Source: Podospora anserina
Lineage: Eukaryota
Direction of reading: 5' to 3'
NCBI GenBank assembly: GCA_017654855.1
Contig: CM030334.1
Coordinates: 3,100,001 to 3,164,000, forward strand
Length of the DNA: 64,000 bases
The notes under the pieces are model-generated. The model saw nothing but the letters and a program-made list of their open reading frames with translations, ran no database searches and was not told where the DNA came from. Made by a program: the position numbers and the translations under genes. How positions within the stretch are numbered: position 1 is the stretch's first letter; each line of letters begins with the position of its first letter. This document shows, piece by piece, positions 11,734-15,370 of this stretch.

Positions 11734-13845
11734 ATGCCGTCAACCAAAAGCACAAATGGCGATAGCCACTTCCAGCAAAAGATAAAGAGTTTCTTCCGCA
11801 TCAACTCGTCCAGCAGCAGTCGCGATGCCACCACCCCGGACCGGGAGCGCGGCGGCGTCTCGGGCCCCCTGCGCTCCGAGAACAACAAGCCCTCCCGCAA
11901 CACGAGGTTCTTCAGCGTCGGCCGCCTGCGCAGCGCGACCACCGCTAGCGAGGGACATCCGCTCGACGAGGCCATGAGCCCGACTGCTCATGCGAACCCC
12001 TACTTTGCCCACCAGGGCCAGCCCGGCCTACGACATCACAATGACGGGTCCGTACCCCCGAGTCCACCCGACACCCCGATGCTCAAGGTCGACGGCCCCA
12101 ACGGCGGGCCCGTGGAGAAGATATCGGCGAGCACCAAGGAGGAGCTCGCGAGGAAATTGAGGAGGGTTGCCAGTGCCCCGAATGCACAGGGCTTGTTTTC
12201 CAAGGGCAACGGCAGCGGGGAAAGACCACAAACCGCCGAGCTTAGCAAGGAGCCGCTCGCCGAGAGTAAGGACTCGACGAGCGTGGGATTTGCCGACGCC
12301 CAGACACCACCCGGCAGCGCGGTGGAATTGGCCACGTCTGTGCCGGAAGGGGATAGCCTCGGGGCGCTGCCACCACCGAACCAGTCGCCGTTGGCGTTCC
12401 GCAGGACGTATAGCTCCAACTCGATCAAGGTCCGGAATGTGGAGGTAGGCCCCCAGAGTTTCGACAAGATCAAGTTGATTGGTAAGGGTGATGTGGGTAA
12501 GGTGTATTTGGTGAGGGAGAAGAAGAGTTCAAGGCTGTATGCCATGAAGGGTTAGTCTGTCCAACCTTGGCTGGAGGAATGTGCTGGCTGACATGTCACA
12601 CAGTGTTGAGCAAGAAGGAGATGATCAAGCGCAACAAGATCAAGAGAGCGCTGGCAGAGCAGGAAATCCTCGCGACGAGCAACCACCCTTTTATCGTCAC
12701 TCTCTATCACTCTTTCCAGTCCGAGGACTACCTCTATCTGTGCATGGAGTACTGCAGCGGCGGCGAGTTTTTCAGGGCGTTGCAGACGAGACCGGGCAAG
12801 TGCATATCGGAGGATGACGCCCGCTTCTATGCGGCTGAGGTTACGGCCGCGTTGGAGTACTTGCATCTGATGGGTTTCATTTACCGGGATCTGAAGCCAG
12901 AGAGTATGTCTCGATCACTGCATGCGCCGTGTGGGATGTGTGCTGACAATCCGTCACAGATATTCTGCTTCATCAGTCTGGCCATATCATGCTTTCAGAT
13001 TTCGACTTGTCAAAACAGTCTGATCCCGGCGGCAAGCCGACGATGATTCTAGGGAAGAACGGCACCAGCTCGACATCGCTGCCAACCATCGATACCAAGT
13101 CGTGCATTGCCAACTTCCGAACGAACTCTTTTGTTGGCACAGAAGAGTACATCGCGCCCGAGGTGATCAAGGGCAGCGGGCACACCAGCGCCGTCGACTG
13201 GTGGACGCTGGGTATTTTGATCTACGAAATGCTGTACGGCACCACACCGTTCAAGGGAAAGAACCGCAATGCGACATTCGCCAACATCTTGCGCGAAGAC
13301 ATTCCCTTCCCGGACCACGCGGGCGCACCGCAAATATCAAAGTGAGTCTCCTGTCGCATCGCAGTCGCATGCACCATCGCATTTGTCAGAAGCCATTACT
13401 AATGCTATATCTCTCTCACCCCAGCCTCTGCAAGTCATTGATCCGCAAACTATTGATTAAAGACGAGAACCGTCGTCTTGGCGCCAGGGCGGGTGCATCC
13501 GACATCAAGACCCACGGCTTCTTCCGGACGACGCAGTGGGCCCTTATCAGGCACATGAAGCCGCCCATTATCCCCAACCAAGGACGTGGTATCGACACGA
13601 TCAACTTCAGAAATGTCAAGGAGTCTGCCAGTGTCGACATCAGCGGGTCCAGGCCGATGGGGGCGAAGGGTGTGCCGCTGGATAGTGGGTTAGCGACACC
13701 AGGAGCCGAGACGCCAGATCCGTTTGAGGAGTTCAACAGTGTCACGCTGCACCACGATGGGGAAGATCACTATGGTCAGCACTCGCCACCAGCACACCAG
13801 CAGCACAGGAATAGCGGAGGTGGCAAGAATGGGTATGATTCGTAG
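11734..13845 (+). CDS. nrc-2: AGC-family Ser/Thr kinase NRC-2 (Kin82/Fpk1-like); exons 11734-12550, 12604-12903, 12960-13341, 13425-13845; 639 aa
   Basis: [92 protein letters not shown]; three canonical introns restore one frame. Confidence 0.93.
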
Positions 13846-15370
13846 GGGGATACTCAGCTGCCACAGAGGGACCATAACAGCAGCAGGTTTGGGTTGCTGG
13901 TGGGGAGTTGTGTACCTGGGGTGTGGGGGTCAGGTCTACTAGGAGGAGGAGGAGGAGGAGGGCCGAGGGAAACGAGAAGCGAGAGCTGGGGAGGTGTGTC
14001 CTCTATTGCCACGACGAGGGGAAGCGGTGCATCATCTAGCAGGATTATAACGGGACAGCAGCAGCAGCAGCGGCAAACACAAGCACATCATCAACAGTCT
14101 GGTCATCATCGGAAGGATGGGGAAGGGAGGTTGTGGAAGCAGCCGTGGTTTTGCTTCTTGTGAAACATGTAAATGAGACGAGAAGAGCAAAAGAGAATGG
14201 AAATGAGAGGGGGTTGAGGGCAAAGAAAGAGGAACTGTTCAAAACATTTTTGGTCGTTTTTTTTTTCGGTGGGGGCAAAGGGATTGGTGTTTTTGCTGTC
14301 TTTTTTTTTTGAAACGCTTTGGTGTTTGTTTTGATGTGGTTTCGTTTTTTAAACACACACACGCGCAGACATGCACCTATTTTGAAGAAGGGGAGGGAAC
14401 GGGAGGGGACGAGCTGGGAAGGGTGGTGGGCGGTGGTGGTGGTGGGAGCAAGGCTTTTTTTATACACTAACTACTACATCCTACTACTACTATTAACTAC
14501 TACGCTAACGCTACGTACTCTATGTTTGAGTGAAGAGATGAGATGGTGGCTGGATGATAGCGAGTTTAAGGGGGACGGGTGAATTGAGGCACATGTTATT
14601 GAAGGATTTGTTCTGATCTGTTGTATGTGACATGTCTCCGTGGGTGACTACCTAGAAAAATTGCAAGCTCTTGTCAGTCCTAGGACCCGAGGTTGCTTTC
14701 TGGTTCGCTCTTCACTTGAAGTCGTTATATATAACTGTTCAATTTGTGCAGCGAGGCTCTCGAAAGGCAAGTGCAACTATGGCGTATGTGGGGCTATAAT
14801 TACTGCCTTTCACATCGTTCCCTTCTCATCAACTTCATCAATGGTCAAAGTCAGGGTTTTTCCTATTTTTCAGTTCGTCTGCTATCTTTCTCCATACCAT
14901 TGGAAGGCTTCCGCAGTGCCTCGACATCGCCTTGTATGACTGACGAAATACCCTCGAATTTCGACAGATCAGCGACTCGAACTTCAGCTGTGTAGGACAG
15001 AGCCCAATCACGTATCACAGCATAATATACAGCCCTCGGATTCCAGCACCTACATACACGCTGATAATGTCGCCTGCTTCATATTTCTATGCAGATGTCT
15101 AAGCCTTGGGTCGATCGTCGGTCGGCCCCCAATCACAACCAACACCAAGCTTCACGGCGAGTGGCTGTTTGTTCTTGGCTTTCATTGCACTGGACCATAT
15201 TGACGGCCGAAGGAGTGCCTTGTAACATGCACGGTTCGTGTGGAAGGAGGTCGCGACGAGGGTCTATAAGGCATCGACACAGCTCTGATTCATCGAATGT
15301 CTTCTGTTTTCAAGCTTTCTCTCTATTGAGCTGGATGGCTCTGTTCACTCCCAGCCTGCATTGAAGCAAA

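Follow-up and report, generated by a model that had tools for sequence, protein, structure and literature searches.

The open frame behind the UAG stop of Podospora anserina nrc-2: a probable untranslated sequence, and possible CaaL-ended tails in some Sordariales relatives

Loss of a stop codon through adenosine-to-inosine (A-to-I) editing of mRNA is known in hundreds of fungal genes; one role, that of Dbf2, has been worked out, and whether such editing is adaptive is disputed, a letter by Li and Zhang holding that it is mostly non-adaptive. A review reports that more than 70% of fungal sites have U at −1, that A or G is preferred at +1 and +3, and that hairpin loops are favoured. The enzyme is given as Tad2/Tad3 acting with the sexual-stage factor Ame1, and editing has been called a common feature of Sordariomycetes. 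Stop-loss sites are listed in 403 genes of Fusarium graminearum (Du et al. 2026, PMC13123824), against 4,292 genes that end in TAG (Li and Zhang letter), which makes for a modest base rate; a 2016 preprint on Neurospora crassa counts 323 edited stops among the 1,559 UAG stops of edited genes, and in S. macrospora 47 of 244 coding-region editing sites are stop-loss. Here we consider a candidate site in Podospora anserina, the UAG stop of the nrc-2 kinase gene, together with the 105 sense codons that lie open in frame behind it. The gene lies in a stretch of 64,000 nucleotides (nt), which we call the window (GenBank assembly GCA_017654855.1, contig CM030334.1, positions 3,100,001 to 3,164,000 of the forward strand) and by which all positions are numbered. 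A sequence-only reading of the window had proposed that this stop is edited or read through to give a stage-specific kinase isoform with a possible membrane-anchoring tail.

We conclude that the 105-codon frame is, on balance, probably an unselected frame of the 3' untranslated region (UTR), with or without low-level editing of no consequence. The transcript provides the first line of evidence. Out of 24 sequencing runs found, 17 were presumed to be RNA (0.78-0.83 of the sampled words present) and six contained 0.97 of the words; four runs from four studies were compared over 13000-14800 as assembled contigs, for which the developmental stage is not given. All four skip the 83-nt GT..AG intron at 13342-13424, so the contigs represent RNA and intron 3 of the kinase gene is confirmed. 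Each run has one high-depth contig that continues unbroken from 13425 to an end between 14364 and 14410 (Table 1), with a depth of 56-745 in the mRNA that falls to 0-15 past about 14400. From these extents, the 3'UTR is about 520-565 nt long and holds the entire 105-codon frame in its first 318 nt, with some 230-250 nt left behind the TGA at 14161-14163; an mRNA ending before 14163, the outcome named in advance as fatal to any extension, is not what the contigs show. Position 13844 is A in the contigs of all four runs, and none of the four, all of which cross the region, has a joint at 13833-13880. The major mRNA form keeps the UAG and leaves 13833-13880 unspliced; assembled contigs lose minor variants, however, and could miss an edited form that is rare or confined to one stage. 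U-rich sequence had been placed directly behind the frame, and this is right only in part, as the first 85 nt or so after the TGA are A/G-rich and runs of T begin only then.

The composition of the frame is non-coding. Third-position C amounts to 0.11 in the tail frame against 0.39 in the coding sequence (CDS), and third-position A to 0.24 against 0.11. With a codon log-likelihood trained on the long frames of the window, the CDS scores +0.245 per codon in its own frame and −0.39 and −0.24 in the other two, whereas the three frames of the tail score −0.09, −0.17 and −0.12, so that none stands out. GC skew is +0.33 to +0.52 from 13700 to 14449, the tail being no different from the rest of the UTR. 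The peptide itself is 75% polar (Gly, Ser, Gln, Arg and others, including charged residues).

Homologues of the tail were equally elusive. The tail peptide alone, compared with 5.8 billion proteins, gave 62 candidates, none with an expect value (E) of 10 or less. When the last exon was searched together with the tail, none of the best 120 of 622 matches covered the tail, and the largest query cover was 58%. A comparable C-terminal tail is absent from all 120 of the best database orthologues; one of them (P0101) has a long end, which is unrelated. A profile of six tails found three matches among 8,000 scored candidates, all limited to the CDS part, and neither the 120 best orthologues nor the profile search yielded an orthologue with a sense codon in the stop position. 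The regular product ends ...NGYDS, an end common to most Sordariales orthologues: 12 of the 16 that were fetched have GY(E/D)S directly before the stop, and the remaining ends are NGYGT, NGYKS, NGYEH and AYEKR. Together with the absence of tails from the database orthologues, this indicates that the canonical end is old and conserved. Rfam gave no match at E <= 1 for 13700-14500. The P. anserina tail therefore looks to be without sign of selection as a protein, as neither conservation of its frame or sequence nor coding composition was found.

Several observations weigh against reading the frame as unselected, and we take them together here and in the paragraphs on the relatives below. The first is the openness. 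The sequence-only reading was accurate on this point: the TAG is followed by 105 in-frame codons up to the TGA ending at 14163, with the peptide as it was quoted. The remaining two forward frames of the 315-nt stretch contain stops; only 0.605% of 20,000 mononucleotide shuffles of the stretch stay open, and only 0.185% of 20,000 random sequences generated at the base composition of 13846-14700. A chance of only 0.2-0.6% at the given composition is unusual for one gene. Extrapolated to thousands of fungal genes, the same rate leads us to expect tens of comparable frames by chance, so the open frame alone says little. Within the window, nine of 87 stops have 105 or more sense codons behind them (median 21), a null that is not clean in that the 87 are the stops closing stop-to-stop frames of at least 150 amino acids (aa) and include exon ends. 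We suggest that the frame stays open because the stretch is G-rich and T-poor and because two triplet microsatellites run through it. The claim that its GGA and CAG repeats preserve the frame was borne out, both arrays being in frame (Table 1); however, triplet arrays also occur past the end of the mRNA, (GGT)7.7 at 14422-14445 and (ACT)10.7 at 14470-14503, and triplet repeats are thus no mark of coding at this locus. Tentatively, an older in-frame terminator block, to which we return below, may now be shifted from the frame by one base, and reading would then run on into former UTR.

Table 1. Features of the nrc-2 locus of P. anserina (window coordinates)
Feature	Position	Strand	Remarks
nrc-2/Fpk1-type AGC kinase CDS	11734..13845	+	639 aa; C-terminus ...NGYDS
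Kinase exons	11734-12550, 12604-12903, 12960-13341, 13425-13845	+	read by eye from the sequence
Kinase intron 3	13342..13424	+	83 nt, GTGAGT..CAG; joint 13341->13425 in 4/4 RNA runs
Predicted hairpin, UAG at tip	13820..13864	+	loop 13842-13845 (GUAG)
Candidate cryptic intron	13833..13880	+	GTATGA..AACAG, 48 nt
Canonical UAG stop, candidate stop-loss editing site A13844	13843..13845	+	context TCG TAG GGG
Open frame	13846..14163	+	105 sense codons (13846-14160) + TGA 14161-14163; first part of 3'UTR
TAG-GAGG(AGG)n-GGGCCG block	13940..13965	+	tentative counterpart of the relatives' CTC TAG GAG GG terminator block; frame +1
(AGG)7 microsatellite	13941..13961	+	Gly7 in frame 0
(CAG)6.7 microsatellite	14056..14075	+	Gln run, in frame
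Rest of 3'UTR	14164..14410	+	RNA contig ends 14364, 14393, 14393, 14410

The second observation is that the UAG does fit a fungal A-to-I stop-loss editing site, as far as flanks and predicted folding can tell. It has U at −1 and G at +1, +2 and +3 (UCG UAG GGG), and it is predicted to sit at the tip of a hairpin with stems at 13839-13841/13846-13848 (UUC/GGG), 13830-13836/13850-13856 (7 bp) and 13820-13825/~13858-13864. The calculated probability that A13844 is unpaired is 0.94-1.0 in windows from ±20 to ±100 nt. The flanks and the loop proposed from the sequence alone are thus both present in silico, but the fold, with a minimum free energy of −17.4 kcal/mol, is only modestly better than that of shuffled sequence (z −1.48; 15 of 200 shuffles fold as well). 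Seven relatives that were folded have no loop position for the A in common (z −1.41 to +1.38). The third observation is that the tail ends in RLWKQPWFCFL, a basic, aromatic and Cys-containing sequence.

These points are the core of the rival explanation that survives best, although we regard it as rather unlikely: A13844 would be edited in perithecia by Tad2/Tad3-Ame1 and the UAG read as Trp, so that one developmental stage would make an nrc-2 isoform whose 105-aa tail is functional. Such an isoform could act in dosage control by means of a destabilising disordered tail, as in F. graminearum Dbf2, or in membrane binding via its basic, aromatic and Cys-containing end. Besides the context and predicted loop of the UAG, it is favoured by the presence of the tail on the mRNA with a sizeable UTR behind its TGA, by the frequency of stop-loss editing in the counts given above, by the tail being largely polar, Gly or charged, by the in-frame tails that relatives keep, and by the precedent of the AGC kinase Dbf2, whose stop-loss tail, disordered and with little sequence conservation, is itself conserved (PMC13123824). 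Expression of N. crassa nrc-2 is also reported to be consistently high through sexual development. Against it stand the contigs of the four RNA runs, which hold no edited form (a weak point, with their stage not given), and the absence of a codon-usage signal, of detectable conservation of the tail and of a CaaX box. The site is not conserved across Sordariomycetes, as the stop of a Fusarium-like orthologue (L069) is TGA, with another stop just one codon further on, and Sordariales-like loci use a mixture of TAG, TAA and TGA. None of the papers found reports editing in P. anserina or of nrc-2; one of them mentions both nrc-2 and A-to-I editing, in passages that have nothing to do with each other. 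The proposal of an edited functional isoform therefore stands in so far as the mRNA carries the frame, the context of the site is suitable and relatives have tails, and fails in so far as no coding signature, homologue or major edited form was found.

A minor UGG-edited mRNA in perithecia is itself plausible, if the lesser chance. Its product would carry a 105-aa disordered appendage rich in Gly, Ser, Gln and Arg, and this would more probably alter stability or cover the conserved C-terminus than serve as a lipid anchor. A CaaX box has Cys at −4 and an aliphatic residue at −2, and which transferase acts depends on its last residue, Leu being that of geranylgeranyltransferase I. In P. anserina the final residues of the tail are F-C-F-L; the Cys is at −3, and no such box is present.

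The relatives provide the remaining points against an unselected frame. One metagenome scan gave 80 loci encoding orthologues, and the stop could be located in 66 of them (29 TGA, 27 TAG and 10 TAA); the majority have short, unrelated tails. In-frame tails are kept in five Sordariales-like lineages: L002, L007/L008, L010 and L039, with TAG, and L016/L017, with TAA. These tails are 24-35 codons long and share a block some 75-108 nt past the stop. The offsets of this terminator block (75, 105, 108, 102 and 93 nt in the five lineages) are all multiples of three, and frame 0 contains no stop in any of the five lineages against 11 stops in the ten other frames. In L007/L008, L010 and L039, the tails end ...GKRGLLFCNVL, ...VKRWRVLPCNML and ...GKRRLPCTIL, with the consensus K-R-x(1-4)-L-x-C-(N/T)-(V/M/I)-L-TAG, which corresponds to a polybasic stretch followed by a C-a-a-L box (CNVL in L007/L008, CNML in L010 and CTIL in L039). 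The box is missing from L002, where Trp replaces Cys (WNML), and from L016, where Tyr replaces Cys and there is no stop at that place.

At third positions the CDS of the lineages are 0.36-0.57 identical, which is close to saturation, only the pair L007 and L010 being nearer to each other (0.65), and the codons of the block vary yet keep the residue (Arg as CGG, CGA, AGA or AGG; Leu as TTG or CTC; Cys as TGC or TGT). The likeness of the tail peptides in frame 0 has a z score of 5.82, with none of 300 shuffles as good, compared to 3.37 and 2.21 in the other frames; the relatives' tails compared with each other give 4.2, 6.2 and 5.5, again with none of 300 shuffles as good. These patterns point to protein-level constraint on the interval from stop to block in the five lineages. 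Cys near the tail end is found in 11 of 41 tails in frame 0, three of 39 in frame 1 and six of 44 in frame 2; several of the 11 are homologous, and this enrichment is suggestive only. Taken as a whole, the comparison is fair evidence that translation past the nrc-2 stop is probably real and selected in some Sordariales. Because of Sordariales biology, stop-loss editing would be the likeliest route past the stop in these relatives.

From these tails we derive a proposal that we put forward as possible but doubtful, namely that several Sordariales nrc-2 genes have a selected tail of 24-35 codons with a polybasic C-a-a-L geranylgeranylation box at its end, that sexual-stage editing switches a soluble kinase to a lipid-anchored one, and that the P. 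anserina frame is a derived or decayed version. The lineages with the box would be L007/L008, L010 and L039, with L002 and L016/L017 as decayed versions. Several facts run counter to selected translation past the stop in these relatives: no orthologue with a sense codon in the stop position was found, the stop of L016 is TAA, two of the five lineages are without the Cys, L004, L006, L009, L011, L013 and L043 have TAA or TGA with tails of 1-28 codons, and L001 and L003 are frameshifted with respect to each other. The block was first noticed through the tails, which makes the frame argument partly post hoc. In the protein tree, L007 groups with Immersiella and Podospora aff. communis (100/98), L002 lies elsewhere in a Sordariales polytomy, and the Podospora anserina group is sister to Chaetomiaceae. 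A lipid-anchored nrc-2 isoform is, given these tails, a real possibility in the wider family.

Two further conserved blocks were seen in the relatives' 3'UTRs. The second block, ACTCTC(A/G)TT(C/T)TAGAC, occurs at L007:3663-3680, L010:3336-3350, L016:3679-3693 and L039:2573-2587, at 281, 326, 297 and 339 nt past the stop (2, 2, 0 and 0 modulo 3). The third, TACTT(C/T)ATC, occurs in L007, L010 and L039 (426, 479 and 485 nt; 0, 2 and 2 modulo 3) and is not found in L016. Neither block is locked to the frame, and both probably act in the nrc-2 mRNA as cis-regulatory RNA elements. A TAG is also the stop in two distant orthologues (L005:395-421 and L077:963-1037; one is Purpureocillium-like), where the tails, 8 and 24 codons long, share an Ala-Gly-Gly start and a Leu-Ser-Val end; their six shared codons differ only at third positions, and the tail of L077 ends C-L-S-V.

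By eye, the start of the P. anserina tail is like that of the relatives' tails (QRDHNSS against RRDGSS and NRDGGS, and VPG), which is the last of the points against an unselected frame. The likeness is, however, not significant: compared with the relatives' tails, its first 32 aa have a z of 1.26, a likeness equalled by 62 of 500 shuffles, and its last 35 aa a z of 0.02, equalled by 228 of 500. The next rival explanation, which we consider quite improbable, is built on the block at 13940 (Table 1). It holds that several Sordariales families descend from an ancestor in which a short tail, made only through editing, ended in a polybasic CaaL prenylation box, and that the function of this tail was lost in P. 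anserina. On this view a net loss of 8 nt would have removed the CaaL box and thrown the old terminator out of frame, so that the present frame would consist of about 24 old codons and a run-on into UTR. The block lies 97 nt past the stop, close to the 93-108 nt seen in L039, L016, L007 and L010, and shares the 8-nt CTAGGAGG with L010 (offset 108) and L039 (offset 93); it matches L006 at 13 of 13 nt (E 0.04), and the distance from VPG to TAG is 19 nt compared to 27 nt in L039. The mutual likeness of the relatives' tails also speaks for an ancestral tail. On the other side, the block is short and partly simple repeat, the tree joins the Sordariales families in a polytomy and so does not place such a tail in the ancestry of the Podospora line, and the tail peptide shows no significant likeness to its supposed counterparts. 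Comparison by blastn of the P. anserina 3'UTR with the 3' regions of 11 relatives gave short matches only; none was better than those of 14/14 nt (E 0.01) and 13/13 nt (E 0.04). Since the E 0.01 match, to L003, lies elsewhere in the UTR, matches of this length arise easily and lend little support to homology at 13940; the identification of the 13940 block as a counterpart of the old terminator is weak and tentative.

The match to L003 joins window positions 14371-14384, at the end of the 3'UTR, to the region of the second in-frame stop of this Thozetella-like locus. It could reflect a UTR motif that is conserved, or have arisen by chance.

It is very unlikely that a near-cognate tRNA reads through the UAG and gives a low constitutive level of extended protein. 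The frame is open and on the mRNA, as this would demand, but the context UAG GGG GAU is not known to be leaky, unlike UGA CUA and UAG CAA UUA, and downstream no stimulatory structure beyond the small hairpin and no Rfam match was found. The 48-nt cryptic intron proposed as an alternative means of removing the stop in frame has GT..AG ends and a length divisible by three, but can be given almost no credence, having no joint in the four RNA runs, in all of which the adjacent 83-nt intron is spliced, and no CTRAC-like branch site, unlike introns 1-3 of the kinase gene (GCTGAC or ACTAAT).

The kinase gene is the P. anserina nrc-2/Fpk1-type AGC kinase, with full-length sequence orthology to N. crassa NRC-2. 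The four-exon product is identical to the Cercophora samala orthologue (P0003) at 630 of 639 residues and to N. crassa NRC-2 (P0038) at 528 of 639; in a search with the last exon and tail, for which TAG was translated as Trp, the coding part matched PODANS_3_8760 at 100%. The protein-kinase domains PF00069 and PF07714 are precomputed for the database matches of the kinase. N. crassa NRC-2 and yeast Fpk1/Kin82 are orthologues of the window kinase, although NRC-2 ends ...AYEKR and the P. anserina protein NGYDS. Kinases of the Fpk1 type act on membrane flippases.

The deposited model PODANS_3_8760 (P0002, 647 aa) diverges from all orthologues past residue 374, where intron 2 has its donor, and takes exon 3 in the wrong frame (window 12904-13424, exons 2-4); it shares 534 of 639 residues with the four-exon model. 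The RNA of all four runs has TTT inserted after 14300, the sole difference from the window, which means either that the strains differ or that the assembly has a wrong homopolymer length. Past the main 3' end, RNA contigs of low depth (4-15) cover 14405-14716 in three of the four runs, and a separate contig begins at 14756 in one run; this RNA could come from read-through transcription or from the transcript of the next gene.

The closest described system is DBF2, an NDR kinase gene of F. graminearum and other Sordariomycetes (PMC13123824). Like nrc-2 it is an AGC-group gene with a conserved C-terminus, its TAG is in a predicted hairpin loop, its tail frame is coil-rich and poorly conserved, and its hosts, like P. 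anserina, belong to a class that edits mRNA in perithecia. In DBF2, however, editing is seen in RNA sequencing of eight species, TAG is the stop in 94% of Sordariomycetes, and the tail has been shown to be destabilising and disordered (PMC13123824). In nrc-2, by contrast, the stop codons of relatives are mixed, the hairpin is not conserved and the contigs are without an edited form. We suggest that P. anserina nrc-2 is a plausible further stop-loss candidate, the tail of which looks unselected.

For the relatives' in-frame CaaL tails, which we regard as the most valuable outcome of this work, the nearest known parallel is the amber/W switch of hepatitis delta virus. As described in a review (PMC10459925), the virus resembles L007/L008, L010 and L039 in combining a UAG that editing could turn into Trp, a short tail and a terminal prenylation box; it differs in being viral, in the action of ADAR1 on antigenomic RNA and in the proven farnesylation of the CXXX box of the large antigen. 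In nrc-2, the gene encodes a cellular kinase, the enzyme would be Tad2/Tad3-Ame1, and the box of the relatives is known from their sequences, the P. anserina tail having none. The papers found on readthrough together with CaaX describe no such case. Fungi also have cryptic peroxisomal targeting signals (PTS1) that are exposed by readthrough or alternative splicing. These are alike in that a C-terminal sorting signal is hidden behind the stop of a cytosolic enzyme, and differ in that the route is ribosomal readthrough at UGA CUA or splicing, with no developmental stage gated by editing. If the tails of the relatives are what they appear to be, they would be a second and mechanistically different use of stop-loss editing, taking a kinase to membranes instead of to degradation, and they would bear directly on the question of adaptiveness.

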